Assembly: GCA_017430455.1 (NCBI GenBank)
Contig: JAFRMX010000010.1
Span: 40,777 to 104,776, forward strand
DNA length: 64,000 bases
DNA from: Oscillospiraceae bacterium
GTDB taxonomy: Bacteria; Bacillota; Clostridia; Oscillospirales; Oscillospiraceae
Direction of reading: 5' to 3'
Shown here: positions 2,158 through 53,090 of the stretch, piece after piece
Layout: every line of letters begins with the position of its first letter
Numbering within the stretch: position 1 is the stretch's first letter
Notes under the pieces: generated by a model
Databases searched by the model: none
Seen by the model: the letters and a program-made list of their open reading frames with translations, nothing else
Told to the model about the DNA's origin: nothing
Program-made: the position numbers and the translations under genes

Positions 2158-2375
2158 ATTATATTCTCCCAAAAGGCGCTCTGCATTTTTGAGACGGAAT
2201 AAACTCCGGTACCGCATATCGGGTACCGAAGATGTAATGATTTATTCGATCGCGAGGACAGTTGAGATATGAAGCGATGTAAACTGAAGTTTATCGAATT
2301 TTTTTCTTTATTTTTCACGGGTATGTGATAAACTGATATATTATTGATCGGGGATATCCCGTCCGGCAGGAGAAT

Positions 2376-3557
2376 ATGGAACATCACGCGAGACATGAGA
2401 GAATATGGCGCTTTTTAAGGCCGTTCGTACGGCTTTATTTCCGTATCAGCGCAAATTGCCGGGTGCCCGAGATCTGTGATCTCGAGGGGCCTTTATTCGT
2501 AATGTGCAACCACAACACGGATCTCGACCCGCTCATACTCGGCACCGCGTTTAAGCACCAGTTCTATTATGTTGCGAGCGAGCATGTCATGAGAAGCGGA
2601 ATACTTTCTAAGCTTCTCGCCTTCGCTCAGCCTCCCATAGTCCGCCAGAAGGGCGGAAGCGCCGCGGGGACAGTACGCGAGATGCTGAAGACCTTCAAGG
2701 AGGGGCAGAGTGTAGGCCTGTTCCCCGAGGGCAACCGCTCCTGGGACGGGGTCACGCGCGACTTCGCCCCGGCGACCGGAAAGCTCGCGAAAACGAGCGG
2801 AGCGACGCTCGTCACAGTCTGTCTCAAGGGAGCTTATCTCGCCTCCCCGAGATGGTCCGGTGCCAGGATCCGCAGAGGCGGGATCACGGTGGAGATAAGG
2901 GGCGTATATCCTCCGGAGGAGCTCAAAAAGATGAGCACCGCCGAGGTGAACGCGCTTATCGCGAGAGATCTTTTTGAGGACGCCTTCGAGCTCCAGAGGT
3001 CTCTTGAAAAGCCTGTCAGATACCGTTCGAAAACTCCGGCCGAGCATCTGGAGACGGCTCTGTGTATCTGCCCGAAATGCAGAAAAACAGGCACGATGAG
3101 AAGCAGAAAGACCGAGTTCTTCTGTACTGAATGCGGGCTCAAGGTCAGATATGAAGAGACCGGGTTCTTCAGCGGGGAGGAGGATATTCCTTTCGACACC
3201 GTTCGCGACTGGTACGCCTGGCAGACAGAGGAGATAAAAGCTCTCTGCGACGGCACCGCGGACGGAGGCCTTATCTTCGAGGACGCAGGATTCAGGCTCA
3301 AATCCGTAAAGACGGGCGTCTCCAGCCGGGACCTCGGCACGGACACGCTGAGCCTTTATAAGGACGCCCTGGTCCTTCCCGACAATACGAGGATACCTCT
3401 AGACAAGCTCGCCGGTATGGCGATAAGAGGGAGCAGCTGTCTGTTTCTCAGCACGGAGGGCGGCGAAAACTATGAGATCACCGCTCCCGTCACGACCAGC
3501 TGCGAGAAATATCTCTCCGCCTGCATGGCGCTCGGCTGCAGCGTAAACGGAACATAA
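2376..3557 (+). CDS. PlsC-family lysophospholipid acyltransferase with a C-terminal zinc-ribbon extension
   Basis: HX4D motif (CNHNTDLDP) and the FPEGNRS motif. The C-terminal half carries CPKC...CTEC. AGGAG RBS lies before the ATG. Confidence 0.8.
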   Translation: MEHHARHERIWRFLRPFVRLYFRISANCRVPEICDLEGPLFVMCNHNTDLDPLILGTAFKHQFYYVASEHVMRSGILSKLLAFAQPPIVRQKGGSAAGTVREMLKTFKEGQSVGLFPEGNRSWDGVTRDFAPATGKLAKTSGATLVTVCLKGAYLASPRWSGARIRRGGITVEIRGVYPPEELKKMSTAEVNALIARDLFEDAFELQRSLEKPVRYRSKTPAEHLETALCICPKCRKTGTMRSRKTEFFCTECGLKVRYEETGFFSGEEDIPFDTVRDWYAWQTEEIKALCDGTADGGLIFEDAGFRLKSVKTGVSSRDLGTDTLSLYKDALVLPDNTRIPLDKLAGMAIRGSSCLFLSTEGGENYEITAPVTTSCEKYLSACMALGCSVNGT

Positions 3558-3598
3558 TAAACAATCAAAATACAATATAATATATCCTGTTGTAAAAG

Positions 3599-5095
3599 GT
3601 GGTGTGGCAAGTGACACGCATAGGCTTTGACAATGACAAATACGTCAAGCTCCAGTCCCAACATATCAGAGACAGAATAGACCATTTCGGCGGAAAGCTG
3701 TTCCTGGAATTCGGAGGAAAGCTCTTCGACGACTATCACGCCTCGCGCGTTCTCCCCGGTTTCCAGCCGGACAGCAAAGTGAAGATGCTCCTCGAGATGA
3801 AAGACGACGCGGAGATAGTCATAGTCGTATCTGCCGACGATATCGAGCGCAGCAAGCGCAGGGGAGACCTGGGCATCACGTATCAGGACGATACACTGAG
3901 GCTCATCGACGCGTTCCGGGGCATAGGGCTCTTCGTCGGAAGTGTTGTCCTGACGCACTACCGGGAGCAGACTGCAGCGGAAAAGTTCCAGAAGAGGCTC
4001 GAGGCGCTCGGCGTCAGAGTCTACCGGCATTATGTGATCCCGAACTACCCCTCGGACGTGAATCTCATCGTCTCCGACGACGGCTTCGGAAAGAACGAAT
4101 ACATAGAGACCTCCCGCCGCCTCGTGGTCGTAACTGCTCCGGGGCCGGGAAGCGGCAAGATGGCGACCTGCCTTAGCCAGCTCTACCACGAGCAGAAAAG
4201 GGGCGTCAAGGCGGGATACGCGAAATTCGAGACTTTCCCCATCTGGAACCTGCCTTTAAAGCACCCCGTTAACCTGGCCTATGAAGCCGCCACGGCGGAC
4301 CTGGACGACGTCAACATGATAGACCCCTTCCACCTGGAGGCCTACGGTGAGACGACCGTCAATTATAACCGCGATGTCGAGATCTTCCCCGTTCTCGACG
4401 CCATCTTTAAGAAGATCAGCGGGGAGAGCCCCTACAAGAGCCCCACGGATATGGGCGTTAACATGTGCGGCTTCTGCATCGTCAACGATGAGGCCTGCAG
4501 AGAGGCTGCCAAGCAGGAGATAATTCGCAGATACTACAACGCGCTGGTCTCCCAGAGGCGCGGCTTCAGCGACAGCAGCGAGACCACTAAGATAGAGCTC
4601 CTCATGAATTCGCTCGGCACGGGCCCGGACGACAGGCCCGTCGTAAAGGCCGCTCTGGACAGGGCGGAAGCGACGGGAGGCCCTGCTGTTGCCCTCGAGC
4701 TGAACGACGGGACGATCATAACCGGAAAGACTACTTCTCTTCTCGGAGCCTCCTCGGCCTGTCTTCTGAACGCTCTCAAATATCTGGCGGGCATTCCGAA
4801 GAAGGAGCTGCTGATGCCGCCTGAGGTCATAGAGCCGATACAGCACCTCAAGGTCGAGCATCTGGGGAACCACAACCCGAGGATGCACACCGACGAGCTG
4901 CTCATCGCGCTTACGATCGTCGCCGTAAACGACCCGAGGGCCGGGCTCGCCATCGATCAGCTGAACAAGCTCAGCGGCTGTGAGGCACATTCGAGCGTTA
5001 TCCTCTCGAGCACGGACGAATCCCTTTTCAAAAAGCTCGGTGTAAACATCACCTTCGAGCCTGTCTATCAGGTCAAGAAGCTGTTCCACAAATAA
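3599..5095 (+). CDS. DUF1846 / UPF0371 family protein
   Basis: 498 aa. The N-terminus IGFDNDKYVKLQSQHIRDRI...GGKLFLEFGGKLFDDYHASRVLPGF is characteristic of UPF0371. Confidence 0.8.
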   Translation: MVWQVTRIGFDNDKYVKLQSQHIRDRIDHFGGKLFLEFGGKLFDDYHASRVLPGFQPDSKVKMLLEMKDDAEIVIVVSADDIERSKRRGDLGITYQDDTLRLIDAFRGIGLFVGSVVLTHYREQTAAEKFQKRLEALGVRVYRHYVIPNYPSDVNLIVSDDGFGKNEYIETSRRLVVVTAPGPGSGKMATCLSQLYHEQKRGVKAGYAKFETFPIWNLPLKHPVNLAYEAATADLDDVNMIDPFHLEAYGETTVNYNRDVEIFPVLDAIFKKISGESPYKSPTDMGVNMCGFCIVNDEACREAAKQEIIRRYYNALVSQRRGFSDSSETTKIELLMNSLGTGPDDRPVVKAALDRAEATGGPAVALELNDGTIITGKTTSLLGASSACLLNALKYLAGIPKKELLMPPEVIEPIQHLKVEHLGNHNPRMHTDELLIALTIVAVNDPRAGLAIDQLNKLSGCEAHSSVILSSTDESLFKKLGVNITFEPVYQVKKLFHK

Positions 5096-5151
5096 TGATC
5101 CCGAAGGTTTATACCACAGGTTTCTTTATAAATCCAATATCGATATAATAC

Positions 5152-5177
5152 AAAAGCAGCCGTAAGGGCTGCTTTTT
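5152..5177 (+). terminator. Rho-independent terminator
   Basis: AAAAGCAGCC-GTAAG-GGCTGCTTTTT hairpin with a T tract. Confidence 0.75.
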
Positions 5178-5273
5178 GCAAAGTATTCTCTGCATTACTG
5201 AACGATTGCGCACAGTACTCTTTTATATTATAATCTCCTTAAAAATCTCTGATCTGCGGGGGTGAGAAGGAAA

Positions 5274-6068
5274 ATGGAAAACGGATGCGTAGCTGTCAGC
5301 GGCACTGACATGTACTATGTTTCCTTCGGCCGGGGGAAAAAGACTCTCGTCGTGCTGCCCGGACTCTCGGACGGGCTGGCCACGGTCAAAGGGAAGGCTC
5401 TGGTGCTGTCCGCTCCCTACCGGAAATATCTGGGAGATTACAGCGTTTATATGTTCAGCCGGAAAAACAGCATGCCGAAGGACTATACGATAAGTCAGAT
5501 GGCGGAGGATCAGGCCCTTGCCATGAAAGCTCTGGGTATAGACAGAGCCTTCGTTCTGGGCGTGTCCCAAGGGGGCATGATCGCCCAGTATCTCGCGATC
5601 GATCATCCCGAGGCCGTCGAAAAGCTGATCCTCGCAGTAACTGCCCCCTATGCCAATAACACGGTAAGAGAGGCTGTCGGAGCATGGATAGAGATGGCGG
5701 AACGGGGAGACCACCTCTCTCTGATGACCGACACTGCGGAGAGGATGTATTCGGACGCCTTCCTCGAGAAAAACCGAAAGCTCCTGCCGCTTACTGCCCG
5801 GCTCACGAAGCCCGCGAGCTATGAGAGGTTTTTCAGAAACGCATACGCTATCCTGGATTTCGACGCGCGGGAGGAGCTCTCTTCTGTGAAATGCCCCGTG
5901 CTGATCATTGCGGGCTCCGAGGACAGGACTGTAGGAACGGAAGCAGCAGATGATCTGAAGGAATGCATTCCGGAAAGCCGGGTGTATGTATACGAAGGGC
6001 TCGGGCACGGCCTCTATGAGGAAGCCCGGGATTTCTACGACAGAGTATTCGATTTCTGCGAGGCCTGA
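5274..6068 (+). CDS. Alpha/beta-fold hydrolase
   Basis: Nucleophile elbow GVSQGG, plus the late GSEDRTV and GHGLY motifs. ATG at 5274 is preferred over the track start (5262) because of the GAAGGA RBS. Confidence 0.8.
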   Translation: MENGCVAVSGTDMYYVSFGRGKKTLVVLPGLSDGLATVKGKALVLSAPYRKYLGDYSVYMFSRKNSMPKDYTISQMAEDQALAMKALGIDRAFVLGVSQGGMIAQYLAIDHPEAVEKLILAVTAPYANNTVREAVGAWIEMAERGDHLSLMTDTAERMYSDAFLEKNRKLLPLTARLTKPASYERFFRNAYAILDFDAREELSSVKCPVLIIAGSEDRTVGTEAADDLKECIPESRVYVYEGLGHGLYEEARDFYDRVFDFCEA

Positions 6069-6082
6069 TAAGGAGGAAAAGC

Positions 6083-6649
6083 ATGAACAAAGCAGTTATA
6101 GTGATAGACATGCAGTACGGGTTCATCGACCCCGCGTCGCCGCTCTGCATCCCTTACGCGAGGGGCACCGTCCCCGCTTGCGCGAGGGTAATCGCGAAAG
6201 CGCATGAAAGCGGCATCCCCGTCATTTTCGTCAACAGGAGCTATCGCGAAGACGGGCTCGACGTCGAGAAGACGCGGCTTAAGACATGGGAGACGGCAAA
6301 GCCTATGATTCCCGGCTCTCCGCTGCAGCTCTCAGCCGAAAATCCGCCTGAGCTCGGCAGGACACCCGAAGATATCTGCATCGAAAAGCCCAGATTCTCC
6401 GCGTTCTTCTCGACGAAGCTGGACATGGTGCTCCGTAGGATGGGGATCGGGCACATCTACATCATGGGCACGACCACCCCGAACTGTATCCGGACGACCT
6501 GCTTCGACGCGCTCTGTCTGGACTACGACGTGAGCGTGCTCGAGGACTGCACCTCCAGCGTCACTCCAGAGATCCAGAGCGCGAACATACTCGATATGAA
6601 AAACATAGGTGCGGAGATCCTCTCCTCGGAAGAGTTCTGCTCCGCCTGA
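6083..6649 (+). CDS. Isochorismatase-family cysteine hydrolase
   Basis: 188 aa with VIVIDMQYGF at the N-terminus and GTTTPNCIRTT (catalytic Cys context). Confidence 0.8.
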   Translation: MNKAVIVIDMQYGFIDPASPLCIPYARGTVPACARVIAKAHESGIPVIFVNRSYREDGLDVEKTRLKTWETAKPMIPGSPLQLSAENPPELGRTPEDICIEKPRFSAFFSTKLDMVLRRMGIGHIYIMGTTTPNCIRTTCFDALCLDYDVSVLEDCTSSVTPEIQSANILDMKNIGAEILSSEEFCSA

Positions 6650-6689
6650 ATTTCCCGCAACCGGACCTGCAAACGACAAACAAATAAAA

Positions 6690-6737
6690 GAGAAAAGGGC
6701 AGCAACAGTTAACAGTTTGTTTACTTGCCCTTTTCTC
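6690..6737. terminator. Putative bidirectional terminator between convergent genes
   Basis: GAGAAAAGGGCA ... TGCCCTTTTCTC arms with a rather long loop (about 24 nt). Confidence 0.45.
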
Positions 6738-6838
6738 AAATGCGTGCTATTATAATACCAGTCAACCGGGAAGAGCAAAGTAAGACACCTTAAATGCGGC
6801 AGTGCTTGCTCTTCGGCGGTGATTTTTTATGCCCTTTT

Positions 6839-7633
6839 TCAGACTTTCAAGAATCTCTCCTCAAAGGCCGTGAGGATCTCCTTCTGGGTATCATCCAGGA
6901 ACTTCAGCGCGTGTTCCCTGATATCATCCGGTATCCCGTAATACGCCTGTGCGATGCCTCCGGTGATGGCAGCGATCGTATCGCTGTCCCCTCCTATCGA
7001 GATCGCGTTGCGTATCGCATCCTCGAAGCCTGTTGATTCGAAGAAGGCCTCCAGAGCCTGCGGCACGGAGCCCTGGCACGAGACGTCGAATCTGTAGCGG
7101 GGCCTTATATCATCCAGAGTAAAATTTATCCGGTAGTAGTTCTCCGTTATATGATCCCTTATCTCCTGGATGCTCTTTCCTGTCCTAGCGAGATAGACAG
7201 CAGCTGCTGTCGCCTCCGCGCCTTTCATTCCCTCGGGATGGTCATGCGTGACCTCCGTGACGCGGTCCGCCAGATAGAGCGCTTCCTCGAGAGAAGCCGC
7301 AGCAAACCCGCAGGGGCTCACTCTCATGGCGGAGCCGTTTCCCCAGCTCTGATAGGGCTCGGGGAATCTGCTCAGCAGCCAGCTGCTGAACCTCCCGCCG
7401 TAGCCCGCATCCGGGTATTTTCTTCCGAGCTCCTGCATCCTTATGACAGCCTTGCTCCCGAGATCGGAATAATCCCCGTCACAGTCGAGTATCGCTCTTG
7501 CCACTGCCAGGGTCATGATGCTGTCATCTGTGGGTTCGCATTTCCTGTCCGAGAAGAACTCGAAGTCCTTCGTCTTAATATTGTTCCATTCGAATCTCGA
7601 TCCGGCAATGTCGCCAATTATTGCTCCAAACAT
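6839..7633 (-). CDS. ADP-ribosylglycohydrolase family protein
   Basis: MFGAIIGDIAGSRFEWNN..., GNGSAMRVSP and IGGDSDTIAAITGGIA motifs. The start was moved to the internal ATG preceded by AAGGAGGAAAAAGCT. Confidence 0.85.
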   Translation of the reverse strand: MFGAIIGDIAGSRFEWNNIKTKDFEFFSDRKCEPTDDSIMTLAVARAILDCDGDYSDLGSKAVIRMQELGRKYPDAGYGGRFSSWLLSRFPEPYQSWGNGSAMRVSPCGFAAASLEEALYLADRVTEVTHDHPEGMKGAEATAAAVYLARTGKSIQEIRDHITENYYRINFTLDDIRPRYRFDVSCQGSVPQALEAFFESTGFEDAIRNAISIGGDSDTIAAITGGIAQAYYGIPDDIREHALKFLDDTQKEILTAFEERFLKV

Positions 7634-7730
7634 AGCTTTTTCCTCCTTTGTTTTATTTGACCGTATTATAAAACAATCGGGGAGCTTTTTGGTCAATCTC
7701 GGATTGACTTTTTTTATGCCCTTCCGGCCT

Positions 7731-8264
7731 TTATATCAGCCTGTAGGTTCTGATGTATTTCTCCGGATCTGCCCCGGTCTCCAAATACCTGAGAAGGATC
7801 TCAGCGCAGGCGCGGCTATCACTGTCCGCCTGATGATGATTGAGGCAGATCCCGTAATAATCGCACATGTCGTTTAATTTGTGGCTTATCCCGGGAAGCA
7901 GGCTCCTGCCCATTACCACGGTACATATTCCTCTGACAAAGGGCTTCCACTCTATTTCATATGCCGAAAGGCAGCTCCTTAAAACGTTCATGTCAAAACT
8001 CGCGTTGTGCGCGACCAGGATCCCGGAAGACATGATCGGCTCTATCTTCTCCCAGAGCTGGGGAAAGGCGGGCGCGTCAAATACGGATTCTTCGTTTATG
8101 CCTGTAAGCTTTATATTGAACCAATCAAAGGGTTGCTCCGGATCGACAAGGGAATAGAAATTGTCCGTGATGATGCCGTCCTCTATAACGGTGATCCCGA
8201 TCGCGCTCATCCGGTTGTTCCAGTGATTCGGAGTCTCGACGTCGAAAACAATAAAGCGGTTCAT
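7731..8264 (-). CDS. DEDDh 3'-5' exonuclease (DnaQ/PolC-exonuclease-like)
   Basis: Exo I FDVETPN, Exo II AHNASFDMNVL, Exo III HHQADSDSRA. Confidence 0.85.
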   Translation of the reverse strand: MNRFIVFDVETPNHWNNRMSAIGITVIEDGIITDNFYSLVDPEQPFDWFNIKLTGINEESVFDAPAFPQLWEKIEPIMSSGILVAHNASFDMNVLRSCLSAYEIEWKPFVRGICTVVMGRSLLPGISHKLNDMCDYYGICLNHHQADSDSRACAEILLRYLETGADPEKYIRTYRLI

Positions 8265-9145
8265 GCCTGTTTCCCCGTCTCTGCCCCGCAGCGGTAATGC
8301 TCCCGCTCGAGGATCTCGTTTGCGGCGGTCCTGTCGATGATCGCTTTCACGAGAAGATCCAGCTCACTTCCCTCGCTGTAGTCCCCGGGGACAAAATATC
8401 TGATCCTGTCCTCGCGCATCATCTTATGAACCTTGCTCCTGTCGTCTTTTTCCTTATTGTATATGCCTATCGAGTGGCCGCCGTATGAGTTGACGAGCTT
8501 CATGCATGGGACATCCGTATCACTGTCGCCTATATACACCATATTCCTGAATGGAACGCGCATCTCCTCGGGCGCGAAATAGTCGTTGACGCTCGGGTCG
8601 TTGATATCCAGCACGCCTTTCTCGATGCGGAAGAGGAACTGTGTCTTGTTAGTATAGTTTACCGCCTGGGCGGGCCACTTCGCCTCCCCGTTCTCATCGA
8701 AGTAGAACGAGCTGGCGTAGATCTTCTCGAAGGCCCCTGCCCTCGCAGGCTCCGTGCCCTCGATCATTTCCTTCAGCCCGGAGGAGATGATATAGTGCTC
8801 GACCTTCACTCCGTGGTCCTCTCCGTATGCCCGGATTCTCTCGAACCATTCGCTGACTCCGGGAAACAGCTCGACCTTTTCCCCGTACTGCCTCAGAGCC
8901 TCTTTTGTGAGCGCGAAATGCCCCTTCGCGCCCAAAAGCATGGCGTACATGTACGCGAGATTGCTGTCCATGTCGTTGCCGGTCGCCAGTATATTGGTCT
9001 CCTTCCAGAAATCATCCACATCGTAACCGACAGACTGTATATAGCCCTGCGCCTGCATATCGTCAGGCGAAAGGGTCTTGTCGAAATCATAGCAGATCGC
9101 CAATACCGGCAATATTCCTTTTTCTTTTCTGATAAAAGCGCCCAT
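8261..9145 (-). CDS. HAD-superfamily hydrolase
   Basis: DxDxT motif (YDFDKTL) and the late GDSDTDVPCM motif. Its stop overlaps the exonuclease start by 4 nt. Confidence 0.75.
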   Translation of the reverse strand: MGAFIRKEKGILPVLAICYDFDKTLSPDDMQAQGYIQSVGYDVDDFWKETNILATGNDMDSNLAYMYAMLLGAKGHFALTKEALRQYGEKVELFPGVSEWFERIRAYGEDHGVKVEHYIISSGLKEMIEGTEPARAGAFEKIYASSFYFDENGEAKWPAQAVNYTNKTQFLFRIEKGVLDINDPSVNDYFAPEEMRVPFRNMVYIGDSDTDVPCMKLVNSYGGHSIGIYNKEKDDRSKVHKMMREDRIRYFVPGDYSEGSELDLLVKAIIDRTAANEILEREHYRCGAETGKQA

Positions 9146-9175
9146 TTCAGCCTCCTGTCATTCTGAGGCAGATTG

Positions 9176-9655
9176 TAACACATTGTTGCAGATAAAGAAA
9201 GCTGTCCGATGCATACGGACAGCCCCCTTTGTCGGACGGTACGGAAACTAAAGCTCAGCGGTTCACATTGCTCCCTGTCTTCTCGATCCTTGCAACCGAA
9301 TATATCTTTACATTTCCGGGGTAAAACAGGGCATGACAGATGCCTTGTTTTCCTGTCATGTCAGGTCGACCTGTCATTAAGTGATATGTTTTTTCGGACG
9401 ACAAATATGACAGTTTGGACAGGGGTGACAGCACAGAAAAGCAGCTGTCACCCGTCAAACCGTTGGGCTGCAATGGCGGGTGACAGGTGACAGCTGAAAT
9501 GTGATATAGCCCAAGCTGTCATCAGATAATAATACGATAAAAAAGGTGACAGCAGCGATTCTGCTGTCACCCTGTCATCAATCCGGTGTTTTCAATGCTT
9601 TGAGCGGTGACAGCATGATTTTCAAGCTGTCACCGTCTATTATGCTGTCATCAGG
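9176..9655 (-). repeat. Word-array element R2 (composite). Private word GGTGACAGC / GCTGTCACC, with degenerate ATGACAG and GCTGTCCG variants.
   Basis: Hairpins at 9201-9223, 9332-9360, 9423-9453, 9545-9571 and 9605-9635. Direct doublet GGGTGACAGGTGACAGC at 9478-9494. Extra copies at 9371, 9407, 9515, 9572 and 9644. Orientation was assigned from the scaffold motif AAAGCATTG on the minus strand. Confidence 0.85.
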
Positions 9656-9749
9656 TTCATCGGAAGTAATAATCCATAGAATAAGCATTTGCCCAAAATC
9701 GTCTGTTTTGACGGATTAATCAGCCGCCTTTTTCATCGTTACTCTTTAA

Positions 9750-10961
9750 TTATGAGATACTGTATTCTTTCCCCATAATATTGATTTGAACGACTTTAGT
9801 AATATCAATCGTGCCCGGCCATTCGGTGAATAAAATCGTAGCATCCCCCTCAAAATCGACCAACGGTGATCTTACCATTGTGATTGTACTGCCATCCTCA
9901 AATGTGAGATACGCGCTGCTCATAAGCTCATCGTAGAAGCCGTACCATCCAACAGGATTTGCACACATATCATCATGGCTAAGTCTCCATTCCGCGCAAT
10001 TTGCTGACAGGCGCACACTCAAAACTTTGCAACGACCGCCGGTACTCTCGTTGTACAGAACGATAGGCGATGTAAAATTCACTGAAGCAAAAACTGTTTC
10101 CACGCCTCGCAAAATTGAAGTCCCGTAATCATGAGAGTAAACCGGATCACCGAGTTCAAATGCAGTCGGGTTTTCTGTCACGTGATAATCTTCTCCGGGG
10201 ATTCGCATAGATTCAAAATCTAAACAGCGGACGGAAAAATACACCGGCATGGAGAAGTCCACATTATTCCTGCTGACATAGCTTTGAAGCATAAGGCTTT
10301 GAGTTTCTGCATCGTAACAGCGCGACATGATGACAGCTTTTGTTTGTTCCGGGTCTATTGCAGTAGTGGTTATTGCTGCTTCTTTCATATCTGTATCCGC
10401 AGCCAGCATGATCATTGCTGGGTCAGCGAAGTTCTTTGAAAAATCCTTACCTCTCTCGGAATCGTTCAACCAGTAGGCTTCTGGGATAGGTTTATTGCTG
10501 GCAAGACTTACAAAAGCAGTCACGAAGCTGTCATATATATAACTGTGGGCTTCTTCCTCCGTTACAGGCGCAACGCTGAAATAGACAAGCTGATTCTCTC
10601 CCTGCTGGATTGAGGAGATCAGTTGAATATGTGGGACTACGTCAGAAGCTGCCGTTTTATTGGCTTGTCCTGTTCTTGCATCAGCTTCGGTGTATTCTGT
10701 ATAACCCTCCACGGAGTTGCTTTCAATCTGTAAGGCGGCTTTCAATTCCATCTGGCGCCTTTGATTAATTGTGTACCCAACGGCGCAGGCAGTCAAAAGT
10801 GCGGCTATGATTGCCGCGACCAAAACCATACGCCATATTTTCCTATTTCTATGCCGCTGATGAGACTGATCATCAAGAAGGTGCAATACTTTGATTGTAT
10901 CTATAACACTTTCTTCCCCCATTTCCCCCACAGCACACAAAAGGGCGATAGAATCTAGCAT
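9750..10961 (-). CDS. Putative anti-sigma factor / single-pass membrane protein
   Basis: 403 aa. A short cytoplasmic N-terminus is followed by the TM segment WRMVLVAAIIAALLTACAVGY. The start overlaps the sigma-factor stop. Visibly lower GC than its surroundings. Confidence 0.6.
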   Translation of the reverse strand: MLDSIALLCAVGEMGEESVIDTIKVLHLLDDQSHQRHRNRKIWRMVLVAAIIAALLTACAVGYTINQRRQMELKAALQIESNSVEGYTEYTEADARTGQANKTAASDVVPHIQLISSIQQGENQLVYFSVAPVTEEEAHSYIYDSFVTAFVSLASNKPIPEAYWLNDSERGKDFSKNFADPAMIMLAADTDMKEAAITTTAIDPEQTKAVIMSRCYDAETQSLMLQSYVSRNNVDFSMPVYFSVRCLDFESMRIPGEDYHVTENPTAFELGDPVYSHDYGTSILRGVETVFASVNFTSPIVLYNESTGGRCKVLSVRLSANCAEWRLSHDDMCANPVGWYGFYDELMSSAYLTFEDGSTITMVRSPLVDFEGDATILFTEWPGTIDITKVVQINIMGKEYSIS

Positions 10962-11512
10962 AAGCCTTCCTCCTGTAAATATGTGCGAAGTTTGTTTCTT
11001 GTCCGATAGAGTGTTGTTTTCGTCTTGCTCTGGCTACAGCCCATGCGTTCTGAAATCTCAGCAATAGGGATTAAGAACCAGTATCGGGCTATAAACATTC
11101 TCCTTTCTGTGTCCGACAGGCCGCGCACGAAAGCGTTAACTACGGATTCCAATTCCTTTTGTTCGACCTCTTGGGCTGGATCTGCAGGAGAAGAAATACA
11201 ATCTTCCAACTCGTCCAAGGCAAGGGGCATCTCACCTCCGCCACGTTTCCGAGCCTTCCTTGCCTTAAATCGGTCAATGGCTAAATTTCGTGTGATGTAT
11301 CCCAAGAACGTCGAGAGAATAGGAGGCCGCTTGTCCGGCATGGAGTTCCATGCACTGAACCACGTGTCATTTACACATTCCTCCGCATCTTCACCATCCG
11401 CGCAAATGTTATAAGCGATAGTATAACAATATTTGCCATACTTGCGGTCTGTCTCGGATATTGCCTGTTCAGAACGCTGCCAGTACAGATCAACAATCGA
11501 TGAATCTTCCAT
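10955..11512 (-). CDS. ECF-type sigma-70 family RNA polymerase sigma factor
   Basis: 185 aa. Region 2 (EDAEECVNDTWFSAW) and region 4 HTH (IAEISERMGCSQSKTKTTLYRTRNKL). Confidence 0.85.
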   Translation of the reverse strand: MEDSSIVDLYWQRSEQAISETDRKYGKYCYTIAYNICADGEDAEECVNDTWFSAWNSMPDKRPPILSTFLGYITRNLAIDRFKARKARKRGGGEMPLALDELEDCISSPADPAQEVEQKELESVVNAFVRGLSDTERRMFIARYWFLIPIAEISERMGCSQSKTKTTLYRTRNKLRTYLQEEGLC

Positions 11513-11570
11513 ACTGATCCTCCTTGTTAAAGTGCTCTCAACCGTATATTACGAATATAATCAATATTGG

Positions 11571-11786
11571 TCACAAAAAAGTAATTCTTTTCGGATTTTG
11601 CGATGTTTCTTTTACAATCACTATCGGAGTTTCAGGATTTAGTCTCTTTGAGATTGCTTTAAAATGTTGCTTGTATGTGCTTAGCGTTTTTACTTTCACA
11701 CCTTTTGCTGCGGTGGCAGCAACAAACTGTTCAAACACTTCTTCCAATGTCATCTGATTAGCGTTCTGCATTTTTATTTTTTTCAT
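11571..11786 (-). pseudogene. Fragment of a tyrosine recombinase/integrase (N-terminal core-binding region only)
   Basis: 71-aa ORF. TLEEVFEQFVAATAAKGVKVKTLSTYKQHFKAISKRL resembles the SAM-like N-domain of phage-type integrases. No catalytic domain follows. It lies about 100 bp from tRNA-Ala. Confidence 0.5.
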
Positions 11787-11891
11787 AAAAAATACACCTC
11801 TTGTTTAACTGATTTTTCCAGAAAAAACAAGCGGTATAAAACCACATAGTAATAAACATAAAAGCCCTGAAACCATTGAGTTTCAAGGCTC

Positions 11892-11967
<76 letters not shown>

Positions 11968-11980
11968 GAGTGCAAAAGGC

Positions 11981-12009
11981 ATTGTAGCAAACAGCGCCTT
12001 TTTTGTCAA
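11981..12009 (-). promoter_or_regulatory. Consensus sigma-A promoter for tRNA-Ala
   Basis: Minus strand: TTGACA (12009-12004), 17-nt spacer, TACAAT (11986-11981), about 14 nt upstream of the tRNA 5' end. Confidence 0.75.
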
Positions 12010-12027
12010 GTCAAAAAGGCGCTGTTT
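11989..12027 (-). terminator. Terminator-like hairpin downstream of the HtrA-like gene
   Basis: AAACAGCGCCTTTT / AAAAGGCGCTGTTT 14-bp arms. There is no clean U tract after the stem. The -35 box of the tRNA promoter lies in the loop. Confidence 0.5.
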
Positions 12028-12060
12028 CTCAAAAATATAAATTGCTTTGAATGATCTTTC

Positions 12061-13368
12061 TCAGTAGAGGTCGTTGGCCTCCATAAGCGTTATCTCGACG
12101 TCGAACGTCTCGCCTTCGCGCCAGATAGTAAGCGTAAGCTTGTCCCCGACTTTCATATCTTCTTTGATGTCGAGCACCTGCTGGGTCTCGGTCACCGCCT
12201 GGCCGTTCACAGCCGTGACAATATCTCCGGCTTTGACCCCCTGCTTCGCGGCGTCGGAATTCTCGACAACGCTCACGACATACAGGCCCTCAGGGAGCTT
12301 GTATTCGCTGTTGGCCTCCTCGGGTATTCCTCCGACAGTTATGCCGATCGTGGCTCTGCCCGTCACCTCTCCGTTCTCTATCAGCGACTGGACTATCTCG
12401 ACCATCGTGTCTGTCGGGATCGCGAAGCCTATGCCCTCTATGGCGTTGTCGGTGGAGGAGGTCATCATCTTCATATTGGTGACTCCTATCACCTGGCCAT
12501 ACATGTTAAAGAGAGGTCCTCCGGAGTTTCCTTCGTTGAGGGCAGCATTTGTCTGCAGGAGCGTCATCGTGTGGCCCTTATAGTTCATCGCCCTCGAAAG
12601 ACCGGATATTATCCCGTCAGTCAGAGTCATGCGGAAGGTCTCGCCCAGCGGGTTTCCGAGCGCCGCGACCTTCTGGCCGACTTTGATGTCCTCCGTGGTT
12701 CCCAGCTGCGCGGGTACAAGTCCCTCCGCCTCTATCTTCAGAAGGGCTATGTCGCTTATGGAGTCGGCCCCTATGAGCTTGGCATCGAAGGTCCGGTCGT
12801 CATGAAGGGTGACTGTAGCACTGCTGCACTCCTCGATTATATGAGTGTTTGTCAGAATCAGCCCGTCCTCCGAGAGCACGAAGCCCGTGCCCCAGTAATA
12901 GCCTGAGCTTCCGTCTGCATAGGCTGTTATGCTTACAACGGATTCATAGCAGTTCTCATACAGCTCGCTCAGATTCATCTCCTCGCCGGACGCCTTTTTC
13001 ACGTCAGGCTTGAAACTGACTTCTCCTGCGTATTTCTCTATATATACCTCAGTATTGGCCGATTCATCTGAAGGAGCGTAGTACTGGGCAAAGAAATCGT
13101 GGAAGTTTTCGGGCATGTCGGAAAAAGCGTCATCCGGTTTGTCCTGTGATGAATCGTAGCTCCAGCTCTCAAACTGCACGGCAGGCCTTTTAAGCCCGAA
13201 GATGCCGTATCCGGCAGCTCCGAGAAGAATGGCCGCCACGAGAACGAGCGCTATTATCCTTGCAGTTTTGTTTTTCTTCCGCTCCGGCACCGGTGCCGGT
13301 TCCGGCTTCTTTTCCGGTTCTGCCGGAACATACCAGCAGCTGCTGTTTAATCCGTTATGATCTTCCAT
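12061..13368 (-). CDS. htrA: HtrA/DegP-family serine protease with PDZ domain, membrane anchored
   Basis: N-terminal TM segment, catalytic context TNTHI / DIALLKI / GNSGGPL, and a C-terminal PDZ (GVKAGDIVTAVNG). Confidence 0.9.
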   Translation of the reverse strand: MEDHNGLNSSCWYVPAEPEKKPEPAPVPERKKNKTARIIALVLVAAILLGAAGYGIFGLKRPAVQFESWSYDSSQDKPDDAFSDMPENFHDFFAQYYAPSDESANTEVYIEKYAGEVSFKPDVKKASGEEMNLSELYENCYESVVSITAYADGSSGYYWGTGFVLSEDGLILTNTHIIEECSSATVTLHDDRTFDAKLIGADSISDIALLKIEAEGLVPAQLGTTEDIKVGQKVAALGNPLGETFRMTLTDGIISGLSRAMNYKGHTMTLLQTNAALNEGNSGGPLFNMYGQVIGVTNMKMMTSSTDNAIEGIGFAIPTDTMVEIVQSLIENGEVTGRATIGITVGGIPEEANSEYKLPEGLYVVSVVENSDAAKQGVKAGDIVTAVNGQAVTETQQVLDIKEDMKVGDKLTLTIWREGETFDVEITLMEANDLY

Positions 13369-13386
13369 TCATTCAACCTCTTGAAT

Positions 13387-14811
13387 CTACGCTAAAGTAA
13401 GTGTGAAGACGAACTCTGTTATACCGTCTTTCGATGTGACCGCGATATCCTCGTCATGCGAGTTTACGATCTCCTTCACAAGGTACAGCCCCAGGCCTAC
13501 GCCGGTTTTGTCGAGGCTTCTCGACCTGTCGGACTTATGGAACCTGTCGAAGATATAGGGAAGATCGTCCTCGGGAATGGTCTCGCCTTTGTCTTTTACG
13601 GAGAAATACGCCTTCTCGTCGTCCCTGTAGACGCGGATCGTGATGCAGCTTCCGTTCTCCGCGAATTTCACGGCATTGTCTATGAGATTGTATATAACCT
13701 GGACTATCGCGTCCTTATCCGCCTTTACCATGACGGGGCTGTCCGGGAGCTGCGGATCCACATCCAGGTCCTTGGCAGTCGCGCGGGACTCGAAGTTTAT
13801 GAGCGTAAGCGCGACAGTCTCTCCAAGGTCGAAGGTCTCATATCTGGATCTGTCCTTTATTCTGGCCGTGAGCTGGGAGACATCCAGCATGCTCCTGACG
13901 AGCCTCGAGAGTCTCCTGGTCTCGTCGCGAATGGAGGTCAGATATTTCTCCTCGCTCTCCTTAGGTATCGTACCGTCCAGGATCCCGTCCGCGAAACCCG
14001 CGATCGTAGTCATAGGCGTCCTCAGCTCATGGGCGACGTTCGATATGAATTCCGACCTTCTCTCCTCTGCTTTCTCAAGCGAGTCCGCCATCGTGTTGAA
14101 AGACTCGATAAGAACGCCCATTTCATCGTCGACGTCCTCGGCCTTGTTGACTCTGACCGAGAAATCTCCTCTCGCGAAGCGCCTTGAGGCAGCAGCCATT
14201 TCATCGAGCGGCTTTGCCATATGCTTCGAGTAGGCAAGGGCGAAGAGCATGGCAAGAACGAATATTATGACCCCGACGAGCACGCTCGGGATGACGAAAG
14301 ATGGATAGGCTCCGAGCATCCCTGCCTTCTCGCCCGTAACAAATATGAAGCCCAGGATCTTCGTCCCGTCGGAGCTTCTGACCGTGCGGGCGGAGATATA
14401 GCTCTCTTCATATGATTCGACGTCCAGCGACCCCTGCTCATCATAAGTGCCGTTTTCGAGCAGCGCGGCGACCATGTCTGGGTCAGTCTTCATGCCTATA
14501 TGCTTGCATACCGGGCCGTTGTCGCTGCAGGCCGTAACCGTTCCGGAGGTATCCGCAAGAAGGATCCTGTTTCCCGTGCTTCCGGCGACCGTGGTGAGTA
14601 TGAGCCCTATGTTCCACTCGTCCGGGTCATCATCCGTGGAGAGCGCGGTAACGATCCTCGAGACCTCAGCTGCCGTATTGGCCATGGACCTTCTGTAGTC
14701 CGCCACCACATAGCTGCGGCTTATCACAGTAAAGGAGGAGACCACGAGCAGGAAGGCGACCAGGACTATCAGCGCGGTGGCTGCAAAGTTTTTGAGGTAT
14801 ATGCTTTTCAA
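13387..14811 (-). CDS. Sensor histidine kinase (two TM segments, HAMP, HisKA, HATPase_c)
   Basis: H-box SNVAHELRTPMTTI, N-box NLIDNAVKF, G-boxes DKGETIP and GVGLGLYLV. Confidence 0.9.
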   Translation of the reverse strand: MKSIYLKNFAATALIVLVAFLLVVSSFTVISRSYVVADYRRSMANTAAEVSRIVTALSTDDDPDEWNIGLILTTVAGSTGNRILLADTSGTVTACSDNGPVCKHIGMKTDPDMVAALLENGTYDEQGSLDVESYEESYISARTVRSSDGTKILGFIFVTGEKAGMLGAYPSFVIPSVLVGVIIFVLAMLFALAYSKHMAKPLDEMAAASRRFARGDFSVRVNKAEDVDDEMGVLIESFNTMADSLEKAEERRSEFISNVAHELRTPMTTIAGFADGILDGTIPKESEEKYLTSIRDETRRLSRLVRSMLDVSQLTARIKDRSRYETFDLGETVALTLINFESRATAKDLDVDPQLPDSPVMVKADKDAIVQVIYNLIDNAVKFAENGSCITIRVYRDDEKAYFSVKDKGETIPEDDLPYIFDRFHKSDRSRSLDKTGVGLGLYLVKEIVNSHDEDIAVTSKDGITEFVFTLTLA

Positions 14812-14812
14812 G

Positions 14813-15496
14813 TTATCCCATGACCTCGAACTTGTAACCGACGCCCCAGACCGTCTTCAGGGACCATTTGTCGGATACGCCCTCGAGCTTTTCGCGAAGT
14901 CTCTTTATATGCACGTCAACTGTTCTGGAATCTCCGAAATAGTCGAAGCCCCATACCTCGTCCAGAAGCTGGTTCCTTGTAAAGACCCTGTTCGGCGAAG
15001 ATGCCAGATGATAGAGCAGCTCCATCTCTTTCGGAGGAGTGTCTATCTTCTCTCCGTCCACTATGAGCTCATACGAATCGAGGTTTATAGTGAGCTTGTC
15101 GAAATCAAGCTTCTTTTCTCCGACCGTATCTCCCTCGCTCCTCCTCATAACAGCATGGACTCTCGCGATGAGCTCCTTGACCTCGAAAGGTTTCGTGATA
15201 TAGTCGTCAGCTCCCATCTCGAGGCCGGTGACCTTGTCCTTGGTCTCGCCTTTGGCCGTGAGCATGATTATGGGCGTCGTGGATTTGCCTCTTATATAAT
15301 TGCAGACTTCCCATCCGTTTTTCACCGGAAGCATTATGTCCAACAGGACCACATCGGGCTGGAAAAGATCGAAGGACGACTCCGCTTTTCCTCCGTCTGC
15401 AGCGATCATAACCTCAAATCCGTCTTTGGAGAGGTAGAGCCTCAGAAGCTCTGCAATATTGCTGTCGTCTTCGACTACGAGCGCGCGTTTGTTCAT
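14813..15496 (-). CDS. OmpR/PhoB-family response regulator
   Basis: Receiver domain (VVEDD...LLDIMLP...LTAKG) followed by a winged-helix output domain (TVWGVGYKF). Confidence 0.9.
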   Translation of the reverse strand: MNKRALVVEDDSNIAELLRLYLSKDGFEVMIAADGGKAESSFDLFQPDVVLLDIMLPVKNGWEVCNYIRGKSTTPIIMLTAKGETKDKVTGLEMGADDYITKPFEVKELIARVHAVMRRSEGDTVGEKKLDFDKLTINLDSYELIVDGEKIDTPPKEMELLYHLASSPNRVFTRNQLLDEVWGFDYFGDSRTVDVHIKRLREKLEGVSDKWSLKTVWGVGYKFEVMG

Positions 15497-15647
15497 AGTG
15501 TATTTCCCCCTTTTTCTCTTATGCTGCCTAATATTCTGCGAAAATTATATACTTATCGGGTCTTTATATGTTACAAAATTGAGAATTAATGCCTTTAAAA
15601 GAGAGGATGCCCGAGGGCATCCTCCCGTGATCGGTTGTATTCCGGTA

Positions 15648-16193
15648 TCAGTAGTCCTGCATGCCGTCGTCACAGATAAGACCGTAGCCGCCGTTCTTGC
15701 GGGTATATACCACAGATATCGCTTCTTCCGCATCGGTGTTCTTGAATACGAAAAATTCGTGGCCGAGAAGGTTCATCTGAAGTATTGCCTCTTCCGGGGA
15801 CATTGGTTTGATGGAGAAGCGTTTGCTCCTGACGATCCTGAAATCGTCTTCGTCGCTCTCCTCAACGGCGGGAGCGGGCTGCTCAAAATCGAGAGAGCCC
15901 TCCTTGAGACGTTTTTCAAGCCTTGTCTTGTTTCTTCTGATCTGCCTGTCGATAGCGGCGACTCCGGAATCGACGGATGCATACATGTCGTTTGTCAGCT
16001 CACTGGCGCGGTAGTACATACCGTTGTTGTGGATCGTGATCTCCGCTCTGAACCTTCCGCGCTCGAGGCTGAAGGTGACATACGCATCTGCTTCCGTTTT
16101 GAAGAATCTGTCAAGCTTGCTGATCTTTTTGATCGCGTACGCTCTCAGCTCTTCAGAGGAATCCATTTTCTTTTCGGTAAAAGTGAACTTCAT
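15648..16193 (-). CDS. hpf: Ribosome hibernation-promoting factor (long form)
   Basis: 181 aa. N-terminal S30AE domain and a C-terminal dimerisation domain (KPMSPEEAILQMNLLGHEFFVFKN). Confidence 0.9.
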   Translation of the reverse strand: MKFTFTEKKMDSSEELRAYAIKKISKLDRFFKTEADAYVTFSLERGRFRAEITIHNNGMYYRASELTNDMYASVDSGVAAIDRQIRRNKTRLEKRLKEGSLDFEQPAPAVEESDEDDFRIVRSKRFSIKPMSPEEAILQMNLLGHEFFVFKNTDAEEAISVVYTRKNGGYGLICDDGMQDY

Positions 16194-16268
16194 GATATAG
16201 AGCTCCTTTCTTTTGCTGATTATATTATAGCACAGAATTCTGCAGCAATGTTAACAGAAATTCCGATC

Positions 16269-18026
16269 TCAATTTGTGTAAATTATACAATTGGGGAGCA
16301 TATCCCGCAGGTACATTATGTCCTCTTCAGGGATCGGATTTCCTCCGATATAGAGATATCTGAGGTTCGTTAGCCCGCCGAGGCATTTTATGTCGCTGAC
16401 GAGATTATTCGATATGTCGACAGTCTCAAGCGAGGTCATGAGATTGAGAGGGCTTACGTCGGAGATCAGATTGTCCGAGAGATCGAGGGAATAGATCGGG
16501 GCTGTCACATAGGAAAAGACATATATATTCTCTATGCTGTTGCCCTCGAGATTGAGCACCCTGAGCTCCTTCAGTTCCTCAATGGGGCTGATGTCCTGGA
16601 GCCCTATGCGCGACGCGTCCACCTCGGTATCGGAGGAGCTGAACACCCTGGAGCCCAGAACGATCTGGAAATTCAGATCATCGTGCATTACAGCCGAGGC
16701 CGTTATCTGCGTCTTCAGCTTTTCCACGGCGCTTCCGGTCAGCGCGGGGTTGTCGAGTATGCTCAGTGTGAAGATACTGCTGTAGCCGTAAAAATAGGGA
16801 AGATCGGCATCCGTGAGGCCTGTCCCGTCCAGGGTGAGGACGGAGAGCTGCCTGAGCTTTCTGAAGGTGGAGAAGTTCGTGATCGGATTTCCGTTTAAGT
16901 GGAGCTCGCTCAGATTCGGAAGGCTGCCGAGAGCAGCCACGGACATGATGCCGTTCCCGTCGGCGTTGATGTTCTTAAGAGTGGTGAGCCCCATGAGAGG
17001 CCTTATGTCCGAAATGTTGTTGTATGAAATGTTGAGAGTCTCCAGCGTCGGGATATCCATGAGCGGGGTAAGGTCGTAGATCGCGTTGTACGCGAGGTTC
17101 AGATTTTTCAGATGTCTGCAGTTCGAAAGTGCCGAAATGTCCGAGATCCCGCATCCGGAAAGATCCAGGCTCTCCGAGGCAGAGGAAAAGCTTCTGCCGC
17201 CCAGAGTGATGTCAGAGGCCGCCTCCTCCGCCTTTTCGCTGTGAATGGAGCAGTCCGGAAGCGCATTCATAAGACTCTGGAGCTGGTGATCGGTGATGTT
17301 TATCCCCTTAACGCTGAGCGTTGTAAGGCCGCTGAGCGAATAAAGCGGGGAGAAATCCGCAATCGGGTTGTTGTCGAGATACAGGGTCCGGAGACCGGTC
17401 AGGGATGAGAGGGGACTCAGGTCGCCTATGGAGTTGTCCGAGAGGTTGAGAGTCCGAAGCCCGCCGAGAGATGAGAGAAAGCCTATATTCTGAATGTTGT
17501 TGTTCTCGAGCGACACGTTGCTCAGCGAGTAGAGCAGGCTGATATTCGAAAGGTCTGCATCCGTAAGGCCTCTGCTGCTCAGAAGCAGGCTCGTGGCATT
17601 TTTGGAGAACTTCTCTCCGGCAATCTCCACCATATCTGCAGCATTAGCCGCAGTGCGCCTCTCTTCAACCTCCGAAATGAGTTTGAGGGTGTCATAGTTT
17701 TCTGAGGAGACCTCTGTCAGGATCTCGATGGCCTTGTCGAACTCGCCCATCCTGCAGTAGCACTCGGAGAGCATGACGAGGCACTCGTCAGTCTCTTCAA
17801 GATCAGCGGCTTTTCTCAGCAGCGGCGCGGCTTCCTGATAATTCCCTGCGTCAAAGTATTCCTGCGCGCTCTGACGGAGATTCCTGTATTCACCGGATTC
17901 CGTCCTGTTGCGGACGATCGCGGCCGCAAGCACGATTATCAGGAGAAGTAGCACCGCGATCGCGCTGTATAAAATTTTTCTGATCGGTATGCCGAAAATG
18001 ATTCCCGGCGTCCTGTTCCCGTTCAT
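16269..18026 (-). CDS. Membrane-anchored leucine-rich-repeat protein with an N-terminal TPR-like region
   Basis: N-terminal TM segment, then about 20 tandem 22-residue LxxLxLxxNxIxDIxPL repeats. Confidence 0.8.
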   Translation of the reverse strand: MNGNRTPGIIFGIPIRKILYSAIAVLLLLIIVLAAAIVRNRTESGEYRNLRQSAQEYFDAGNYQEAAPLLRKAADLEETDECLVMLSECYCRMGEFDKAIEILTEVSSENYDTLKLISEVEERRTAANAADMVEIAGEKFSKNATSLLLSSRGLTDADLSNISLLYSLSNVSLENNNIQNIGFLSSLGGLRTLNLSDNSIGDLSPLSSLTGLRTLYLDNNPIADFSPLYSLSGLTTLSVKGINITDHQLQSLMNALPDCSIHSEKAEEAASDITLGGRSFSSASESLDLSGCGISDISALSNCRHLKNLNLAYNAIYDLTPLMDIPTLETLNISYNNISDIRPLMGLTTLKNINADGNGIMSVAALGSLPNLSELHLNGNPITNFSTFRKLRQLSVLTLDGTGLTDADLPYFYGYSSIFTLSILDNPALTGSAVEKLKTQITASAVMHDDLNFQIVLGSRVFSSSDTEVDASRIGLQDISPIEELKELRVLNLEGNSIENIYVFSYVTAPIYSLDLSDNLISDVSPLNLMTSLETVDISNNLVSDIKCLGGLTNLRYLYIGGNPIPEEDIMYLRDMLPNCIIYTN

Positions 18027-53085: not shown

Positions 53086-53090
53086 AAAAA

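Follow-up and report, generated by a model that had tools for sequence, protein, structure and literature searches.

The 64-kb stretch of DNA analysed here (the window) contains, between a sigma/anti-sigma gene pair and the HAD operon, a dense array of TGACAG-centred words, R2. The question raised by this locus is to what kind of element the array belongs, and whether it represents a new kind of system or the remnant of a familiar one. On both strands of the window TGACAG occurs 54 times, compared with 27.8 ± 5.4 in shuffled sequences. At 9155–9650 there are 16 TGACAG/CTGTCA words, in agreement with the earlier note on this DNA, which had reported at least 16; extrapolation from the remaining window sequence would give 0.3 per 500 bp (Poisson P ~1e-22). 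The parts of the array are as follows (L118 and L271 are R2-type copies elsewhere and L261 is a viral contig; all three are described below).

9365–9670, minus strand: R2 core array, whose 13 TGACAG-centred words form three palindromic pairs and a tandem doublet, with several more standing singly; two conserved linkers are also present.
9424–9452, unstranded: HP-C, a palindromic word pair GGTGACAGC-N11-GCTGTCACC with conserved stems and a loop that varies between copies.
9453–9478, plus strand: L1-type linker CGTCAAACCGTTGGGCTGCAATGGCG, which joins HP-C to the doublet and has also been kept in L118 and L271.
9479–9494, plus strand: tandem doublet GGTGACAGGTGACAGC with a 7-bp offset, identical in L118, L271 and L261.
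9495–9544, unstranded: central segment, with one inverted word at 9514–9523.
9545–9577, unstranded: HP-B, GGTGACAGC-N9-GCTGTCACC, and then an abutting CTGTCA, giving inverted words that face the doublet.
9578–9605, minus strand: L2 linker, with the family signature TTGAAAACACCGGATT at 9580–9595 on the minus strand.
9606–9634, unstranded: HP-A, GGTGACAGC-N11-GCTGTCACC, with both arms changed in its L118 counterpart.

The array thus runs from HP-C through an L1-like linker and the doublet to a centre of 50 bp, and on through HP-B, one further word and L2 to HP-A. The three clean hairpins described in the earlier note are all present, as GGTGACAGC-N9/11-GCTGTCACC at 9424–9452, 9545–9571 and 9606–9634, and so is the direct doublet at 9479–9494. 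The doublet faces GCTGTCACC/CTGTCA at 9563–9577, so that at least two opposed words lie on each side of the centre. The hairpin units recur with a period of ~60 bp, and the helical phasing of the words was uninformative. The centre is 66% AT, and the AT-richest 30 bp of the array (9520–9549) reach 73%, compared with a window mean of 50%. HP-B together with a T-run scores as a minus-strand terminator. Promoter and terminator scans of R2 and of the two related arrays introduced below gave nothing above chance except hairpins scoring as terminators, and no convincing promoter.

Several familiar kinds of repeat were considered and dropped. In this array the stems repeat while the loops differ, which does not suit a CRISPR; the spacing is unfit for clusters of sigma-70, sigma-54 or ECF promoters; PhoB- and Spo0A-type boxes have a TGTC core alone in common with the words; integron attC sites were also set aside; and for target/template pairs of a diversity-generating retroelement (DGR) there is no reverse transcriptase and there are no adenine-specific differences.

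A k-mer scan of the 64 kb found exactly two further word arrays, R1 and R3.

1936–2157, plus strand: R1, a sister array with the word TATGACRCG; in order it has w', L1, four words in tandem, a centre of 47 bp, three words in inverted orientation, L2 and additional words.
56488–56732, plus strand: R3, a sister array with the word GTAGACAGGTC, which runs from a hairpin through L1, a doublet, a centre of 66 bp, an inverted doublet and L2 to another hairpin.

The linker TTGAAAAYANNGGAWT is common to all three arrays, with one match in each and none elsewhere in the window, where 0.12 are expected. It lies on the minus strand in R2 and on the plus strand in R1 and R3, in accordance with the opposite orientation assigned to R2 previously. 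A second linker, CATTGGTATTAYTG, is common to R1 and R3, and the L1-type linker of R2 is similar, as judged by eye, to the R3 L1 linker AAAGCATTGGTATTACTGCAACGG. Both R1 and R3 are nested dyads in which a centre of 47–66 bp is followed by inverted tandem words and enclosed by an outer hairpin or words, and in all three arrays the TGACA words converge on the centre. R2 consists of these parts in an identical order and departs from R1 and R3 in one structural respect, the inversion of its L2 linker segment. There are thus three different words in one layout, and the common linker, the layout and the element-specific words uphold the proposal that R1, R2 and R3 form one family.

R2-type copies were found in two further contexts. 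A paralogue lies on RUG14730 contig_6 (L118; 6062–6385), ~88% identical to R2 and beside unrelated genes, with no sigma, anti-sigma or integrase remnants next to it. A copy in another organism (L271; 83% and 78% identical) starts ~45 bp after a tRNA-Ala copy. Both are collinear with R2 over ~260–305 bp; contrary to the previous suggestion, R2 is not a tandem of two elements. A scan of genome contigs for the hairpin GGTGACAGC-N9-13-GCTGTCACC gave L118 as its only useful match; almost all of its other matches were chance or unrelated hairpins, for example a REP-like family in Actinoplanes. A combined L1 and L2 probe of genome contigs recovered only the R1 orthologue in RUG14730, the R2 linker gave one real match (L271) and one chance match in a metagenome scan, and the 12 matches of the L2 linker probe in viral contigs were all chance. 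No match was obtained by blastn of R2 and the phage arrays described below against phage and plasmid collections. By exact-pattern probes RUG14730 holds one R2-type copy (L118) and an R1 orthologue.

In a three-way alignment of the window R2, L118 and L271, 88% of the columns in words and 81% of those in linkers are invariant, compared with 50% in loops and spacers (Fisher test versus loops and spacers, p = 2e-9 for words and p = 1e-4 for linkers). Hairpin HP-A differs on both arms, GGTGACAGC/GCTGTCACC in R2 being replaced by GATGACAGC/GCTGTCATC in L118. Since conservation extends to the sequence of the words themselves, tandem direct copies included, the pattern points to a sequence-specific constraint on the R2-type words and linkers that is not merely one of pairing, and to a protein as the probable binder.

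This comparison bears on the possibility that the R2 region is a structured noncoding RNA or a set of terminators, its hairpins acting as RNA. The predicted folding is strong (z = -6.4 for 9365–9670 folded as single-stranded DNA) and agrees with such a role, as does the terminator score of HP-B. However, Rfam 15 gave no match at its gathering score in the window and none even at E ≤ 1 in 9100–9800, and the scans noted above gave no convincing promoter. Pairing does not explain the tandem direct words or the use of identical words in every hairpin of one element; the words are conserved as sequence while the loops vary; and orientation with respect to the neighbouring genes is inconsistent among R1, R2, R3 and L118. 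We regard an RNA role as very improbable indeed.

Whether R2 belongs to the chromosomal backbone or to something inserted in it was addressed by comparison with related assemblies. The region between the HAD operon and the nearby tRNA gene contains the following features.

9207–11859, minus strand: strain-variable island, 2.65 kb, 44% GC compared with 52–54% in its flanks; besides R2 it carries a fragment of a phage gene (gene X, below), genes for an ECF sigma factor and an anti-sigma-like protein, and an integrase-like fragment of 71 aa.
9750–10961, minus strand: 403-aa membrane protein in the anti-sigma position, without a significant family match and assigned by gene position alone.
10955–11512, minus strand: ECF-type sigma factor, 185 aa (Pfam Sigma70_r2, r4_2 and ECF; PHROG 1740, E 1e-21).
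11571–11786, minus strand: 71-aa ORF resembling the start of a tyrosine integrase core-binding domain (best PDB matches lambda Int residues 68–117, weak at E 0.02).
11892–11967, minus strand: tRNA-Ala(ggc); the island starts 33 bp past its 3' end, after the tRNA terminator.

The island is absent from L121 and L221–L229, which comprise RUG14730, 96–97% identical to the window, and nine of ten other assemblies with an identical HAD protein. In RUG14730 the sequences corresponding to window 2262–9206 and 11854–17777 are contiguous, with ~25 unrelated bases in place of 9207–11859. The island is present in L252–L260, and a lineage that is only ~95% identical also has it; some contigs show an internal deletion of the sigma region. 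Every assembly that bears the sigma/anti-sigma pair and extends far enough has R2, the 71-aa ORF and the sigma/anti-sigma genes occupy the same locus in every assembly carrying them, and the ORF keeps its length of 71 aa in every strain that has the island. Because 9207–11859 is missing as one block from the empty-site assemblies, R2 lies in the island and not in the backbone. R2 is part of a polymorphic, eroded insertion just past the tRNA-Ala(ggc) terminator. The earlier note had placed R2 at the edge of a degraded integrated element beside tRNA-Ala, which is correct, R2 lying within 160 bp of the island edge, but its view that R2 separates the island from the HAD operon is not, as R2 is inside 9207–11859 and is itself part of the island. 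This analysis also accounts for the assembly breaks at the R2 locus and for the strain-variable sigma/anti-sigma pair.

Only 61 bp of backbone remain upstream of the HAD start codon (9146–9206). This segment contains TACAAT at 9172–9177 on the minus strand, which is also found in the empty-site strains and which may represent a promoter element of the HAD operon. Since most strains are without R2, the operon does not need it. The CATTG at 9183–9187 is present as described previously, but it is backbone sequence in the HAD promoter region and not a linker like that of R3.

The family might alternatively consist of nonautonomous mobile elements, MITE-like or REP/BIME-like, that spread by themselves and in which the words are sites for a transposase or RAYT protein. 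There are three intergenic copies in 64 kb with large-scale dyad symmetry, R2-type copies occur in at least three contexts, and the word of R3 starts with GTAG, as REPs do. Against this, R2 arrived or left with the 2.65-kb block and without a target duplication, and genes for a transposase or RAYT are missing from the window. Probes that did not depend on the words recovered very few copies, and the linker probe found no true match in viral contigs. R1 is fixed in both lineages examined, including RUG14730 (L219), and R3 is present in every assembly that reaches its site, with no empty site and no presence/absence polymorphism for either; one of these is a contig of the 96% lineage, in which the left part of R3 is seen up to the L1 linker, where the contig ends. 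In our view a self-spreading element is quite improbable.

The left part of R2 had been described as an older-looking section built of drifted words. The variant pair CATGACAG...CTGTCATG is present at 9332–9360, and GCTGTCCG-ATGCATA-CGGACAGC is present at 9201–9223, but neither is what it was taken for. With a word-independent probe made from the sequence beside R1, R2 and L118, the 'tail' next to the arrays was found to be the 3' end of a protein-coding gene, gene X, and the following features result.

9255–9345, minus strand: pseudogene fragment of the 3' end of gene X, ending ...KIYSVARIEKTGSNVNR*, its last ~30 codons with the stop at 9255–9257, by nucleotide alignment to full-length X.
9201–9223, minus strand: junction hairpin GCTGTCCG-N7-CGGACAGC, then TTTCTTTATC on the minus strand; terminator-like, after the X stop and spanning the island/backbone junction 9206/9207.
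2192–2284, plus strand: diverged 3' fragment of gene X directly after R1 (tblastn with X residues 588–618, 71% identity, E 1e-6).

The section at 9255–9345 is thus a phage gene remnant, with a ~37-bp deletion by which the internal hairpin of X has gone, and the hairpin at 9201–9223 contains no family word. Gene X encodes 617 aa, matches PHROG 511 'internal virion protein' (E 3e-35) and has more than 7,800 homologues. In phage contigs it follows P22-type portal, capsid and Prp genes, and in degraded prophages (RUG14730 contig_9, L249; L273; L240) no phage gene lies between it and the host genes. A search of viral contigs for gene X and its 3' tail gave nothing. Fragments that start near codon 577–591 are found at L237, L243 (second copy), L238 and L118, and 3' fragments of X adjoin R1 and the L118 array as they do R2. 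The last ~130 bp of X recur as dispersed fragments; of the five X-tail copies found in RUG14730, one has an array. Our best guess is that the arrays abut an X stub because the origin and the element's right end were both retained in deletion derivatives. The island, with the stub of an integrase at one end and that of the phage terminal gene at the other, fits a prophage or satellite that has lost its interior.

This setting raises the question of whether the R2 words are arm-type sites for an integrase, an excisionase or another directionality factor, with R2 as the attR-side arm. The array lies within 160 bp of the island edge, the array of L271 begins ~45 bp after its tRNA-Ala copy, and the adjoining X fragment resembles the right end of a prophage, X being the last phage gene in L249, L273 and L240 and its ~130-bp tail being dispersed. 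However, no direct repeat of at least 8 bp flanks the island, the longest string common to the two junction regions being 7 bp; the tRNA-proximal end (11787–11859) is without family words; and the empty site holds ~25 unrelated bases. The integrase-like stub starts at the core-binding domain with no arm-binding N-domain seen, which is a weak point given its 71 aa and E 0.02. The attP arm sets of lambda, L5 and HP1 contain far fewer words than the ~15 counted here, with their palindromic pairs. R1 and R3 hold both halves around a centre, unlike an attL or attR scar, and in L270, L266 and phage RootBeer, described below, arrays of this grammar follow directly on primase-helicase genes. On balance we consider arm-type sites unlikely.

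Viral contigs were searched with the tandem words alone, so that only the inverted partners and the neighbouring genes count as independent evidence. Among the matches were arrays with the grammar of tandem TGACA-type words, 46–52 bp and inverted tandem words. L270 uses the word of R1, with three copies of TATGACACG, 50 bp, three inverted copies and further copies, and its array begins where the gene for a 1019-aa Prim-Pol/D5_N/DUF5906 protein ends, at the stop codon. L266 uses the word of R3, with three GTAGACAGG-type words, 46 bp and three inverted words, 140 bp 3' of a DUF5906 primase-helicase. L261 uses the word of R2; its GGTGACAG doublets, one of them identical to that of R2, flank a 78-bp tract of almost pure A+T in a DNA-metabolism module with an SNF2 helicase, an exonuclease, an SSB and a resolvase. 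In Arthrobacter phage RootBeer, which was reached via the L270 protein, a doublet of AGTGACAY faces an inverted doublet across a centre of 52 bp, 285 bp 3' of the annotated primase/helicase. In every phage array the TGACA words converge on the centre, as in R1–R3. The phage arrays and R1–R3 have words and grammar in common without alignable homology; to judge from their sequences, the former are analogues by grammar, without demonstrable homology. No array was found after one randomly chosen D5-like gene (L201). Neither the window nor the related loci that were fetched contain a D5/DUF5906 primase-helicase or other initiator gene by tblastn and gene content, and none is near R1, R2, R3 or L118. 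The rest of the window consists of housekeeping genes, and upstream of R2 lies the anti-sigma-like ORF, not rep.

Words of this kind could instead form an operator or centromere for a small repressor or partition adaptor of the ribbon-helix-helix or ParB-like type, of which the heptad arrays of the omega protein and the parC/parS sites are known examples. As would suit such a site, the words abut at 7–9-bp spacing in direct and inverted orientation, the L261 array heads a leftward early operon, and the array of L268 lies between small-terminase and methyltransferase genes and not by rep. However, no par or repressor gene adjoins any copy, and convergent tandem sets ~50 bp apart, placed after primase-helicase genes, suit the layout of an origin better (PMC9371898). 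An operator or centromere therefore seems improbable to us.

In our view the evidence is most consistent with R2 being the orphan iteron-type origin array of a decayed integrative phage-like element or satellite, a reading by analogy to which we would give roughly even chances. It is favoured because R2 lies in a low-GC, strain-variable insertion by a tRNA gene with an integrase-like stub and a phage structural-gene fragment; because R1–R3 combine one layout with different words, as in element-specific iterons; because words and linkers are invariant beyond loops and spacers across three contexts; and because the arrays of L270, L266 and RootBeer lie 3' of primase-helicase genes and the layout of SaPI origins matches. 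Counting against an origin are the lack of an initiator gene, the moderate AT content and the extra palindromes and linkers, which are absent from the description of SaPI origins. Three independent origin relics in 64 kb, with R1 and R3 standing alone, would also be unexpected.

Such an element would have inserted just downstream of tRNA-Ala and then decayed to 2.65 kb, in which the origin array survives together with the integrase stub, the sigma/anti-sigma genes and ~90 bp from the end of the terminal virion gene. In its intact stage, a self-loading primase-helicase of the D5/DUF5906 type would have recognized the 8–9-bp TGACAG words through a DNA-binding domain. The tandem and inverted words would load two complexes facing each other across the ~50-bp centre, which would then melt, and the outer palindromic pairs and CATTG-type linkers may bind extra initiator subunits or an accessory factor. 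Primase-helicase binding and origin function are thus inferred for R2 by analogy with the phage and satellite systems. Because no initiator gene is nearby, R2 is probably inert in this genome.

It is also conceivable that R1–R3 are retained orphan origins, each tuned to the initiator of a different phage or satellite, resident or invading, and that they act as decoys that titrate the incoming primase-helicase or set off local over-replication, or else as minimal hitch-hikers that a helper replicates and recombines; we hold this extension to be quite improbable. The decoys would amount to an origin-based interference comparable to the plasmid-borne 'Per' phenotype of lactococci. R1 and R3 are isolated in short backbone intergenic regions without other element genes. 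The fixation of R1, and seemingly of R3, at such sites is compatible with retention, and so is the purifying pattern seen for words and linkers. If the origin reading is correct, three arrays in a rumen Ruminococcaceae genome could be annotated as relics of phage- or satellite-type origins, and the TGACA-core grammar of tandem words, ~50 bp and inverted tandem words could serve as a practical marker for origins beside D5/DUF5906 primase-helicases in uncultured phages from several phyla. The main value lies in correct annotation and in a testable pairing of initiator and iteron, and not in a new class of system.

R2 can be compared with several known systems. REP/BIME and MITE families are intergenic and hairpin-rich, occur in several copies per genome and have conserved stems with variable loops. 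The R2 family differs in that very few copies were found in RUG14730, the one related genome that was probed; R2 itself lacks both a target duplication and a linked gene for a transposase or RAYT, and it is inherited within a larger island. Lambda-like attP arms are likewise clusters of element-specific protein-binding words near the end of a tRNA-adjoining integrated element; R2 has many more words, with palindromic pairs, abutting tandems and no flanking core repeats, and R1 and R3 are complete dyads that stand alone. In the ori/crr regions of satellite phage P4, type I octamer iterons TGTTCACC are bound by the gp-alpha primase-helicase. The P4 octamers are direct and inverted, the primase-helicase is D5-like and the satellite has a tyrosine integrase. 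The octamer words of R2 in both orientations resemble this arrangement, but in P4 the word is a different one and the cis-acting sequence is divided between two separate regions.

The closest parallel is provided by SaPI/PICI origins. Those of the SaPIs have 6–12 iterons directly downstream of rep, with an AT-rich centre and at least two opposed iterons per side, to which a self-loading helicase binds (PMC9371898). Several differences are evident: no rep gene accompanies R1–R3, so the placement of the array after rep is not seen; their words are of 8–11 bp with a TGACA/AGACAG core, compared with penta- and hexanucleotides; outer palindromic pairs and two conserved CATTG-type linkers are additional; the centre of R2 is only moderately AT-rich (66%, at most 73% over 30 bp), far below the tract of L261; and the host is represented by a rumen Ruminococcaceae MAG and not by Staphylococcus. 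Nevertheless, R1–R3 have in common with these origins short, element-specific words with at least two opposed words on each side of a centre, R2 resembles them in belonging to an integrase-bearing island at a tRNA-linked site, and the phage analogues described here place the array directly 3' of a D5/DUF5906 primase-helicase gene. Rather than a new kind of system, R2 most resembles the relic of a phage- or satellite-type origin from which the initiator gene has been lost.

Gene X, the 617-aa phage virion gene (PHROG 511) whose 3'-end fragments adjoin R2, carries a palindromic insert in two of the loci that we fetched, one of them (L243) from RUG14730, a genome related to that of the window.

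L243 5100-5232: palindromic insert in gene X, immediately 5' of codon ~577
L238 about 250-420, minus strand: palindromic insert in gene X, immediately 5' of codon ~577

The insert has an in-frame reading, GLPRRF...APRND. All of the dispersed 3' fragments of gene X share a common start point, and this is the site of the palindromic insert; insertions or recombination may therefore be especially frequent near codon ~577. We also note that on contig_9 of RUG14730 (L243 4996-7894 / L249 10001-13300) a full-length gene X is followed by nadE (NAD synthase) and a 53-aa ORF, and then by a second copy of the last ~130 bp of X. The two copies of the gene X end are direct repeats bracketing a 1.6-kb insert, and the segment with nadE and the 53-aa ORF looks like a cassette inserted at this end.

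The strain-variable island that contains R2 is itself incomplete in some of the strains that bear it. Window positions 10295-11527, which hold the sigma gene together with the 5' portion of its anti-sigma neighbour, are missing from L256 and L258, and erosion of the island is ongoing in the population. In a further locus (L271 632-1000; JAEEGI010746735.1) a copy of tRNA-Ala(ggc) is followed directly by an R2-type array. The 3' two-thirds of this copy are 98.5% identical to the window tRNA and its 5' part is different; a hybrid tRNA, or one duplicated in part, may be present here at an integration site.

Two other features of the window were recorded.

6839-9145, minus strand: cluster of HAD hydrolase, RNase T-like exonuclease and ADP-ribosylglycohydrolase
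52994-53086, minus strand: SAM riboswitch (RF00162, 48.7 bits), upstream of genes for an ECF-transporter S component and ABC proteins

The HAD protein of the cluster shows about 65-77% identity across Clostridia, Veillonella and Treponema, which is unusually high for a protein without an assigned function.

Hairpins, a palindrome and an array were also noted in other genomes.

L195 7770-7895 (Christensenellaceae): long hairpin of AGAGTTG heptad repeats, 3' of a Sir2-like gene
L108 1-470 (Tannerellaceae MAG, a Bacteroidota genome): near-perfect palindrome of about 440 bp, with AATCGCTGTCAC words in both orientations
L275 4263-4564 (Arthrobacter phage RootBeer, PQ184833 35779-36080): unannotated intergenic array, just past the primase/helicase gene gp48

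The AGAGTTG hairpin is probably a terminator and has no relation to the family. Actinoplanes sp. DH11 carries hairpins GGCTGTCAC...GTGACAGCC in tandem arrays on many contigs (L089, L102, L016, L120 and L080); these form a high-copy REP-like family, which has the word in common with R2 by chance. The architecture of the Tannerellaceae palindrome is origin-like or hairpin-end-like. In RootBeer, a cultured phage, an AGTGACAY doublet is followed by a 52-bp palindromic centre and then by an inverted doublet, and we regard this array as a candidate origin.
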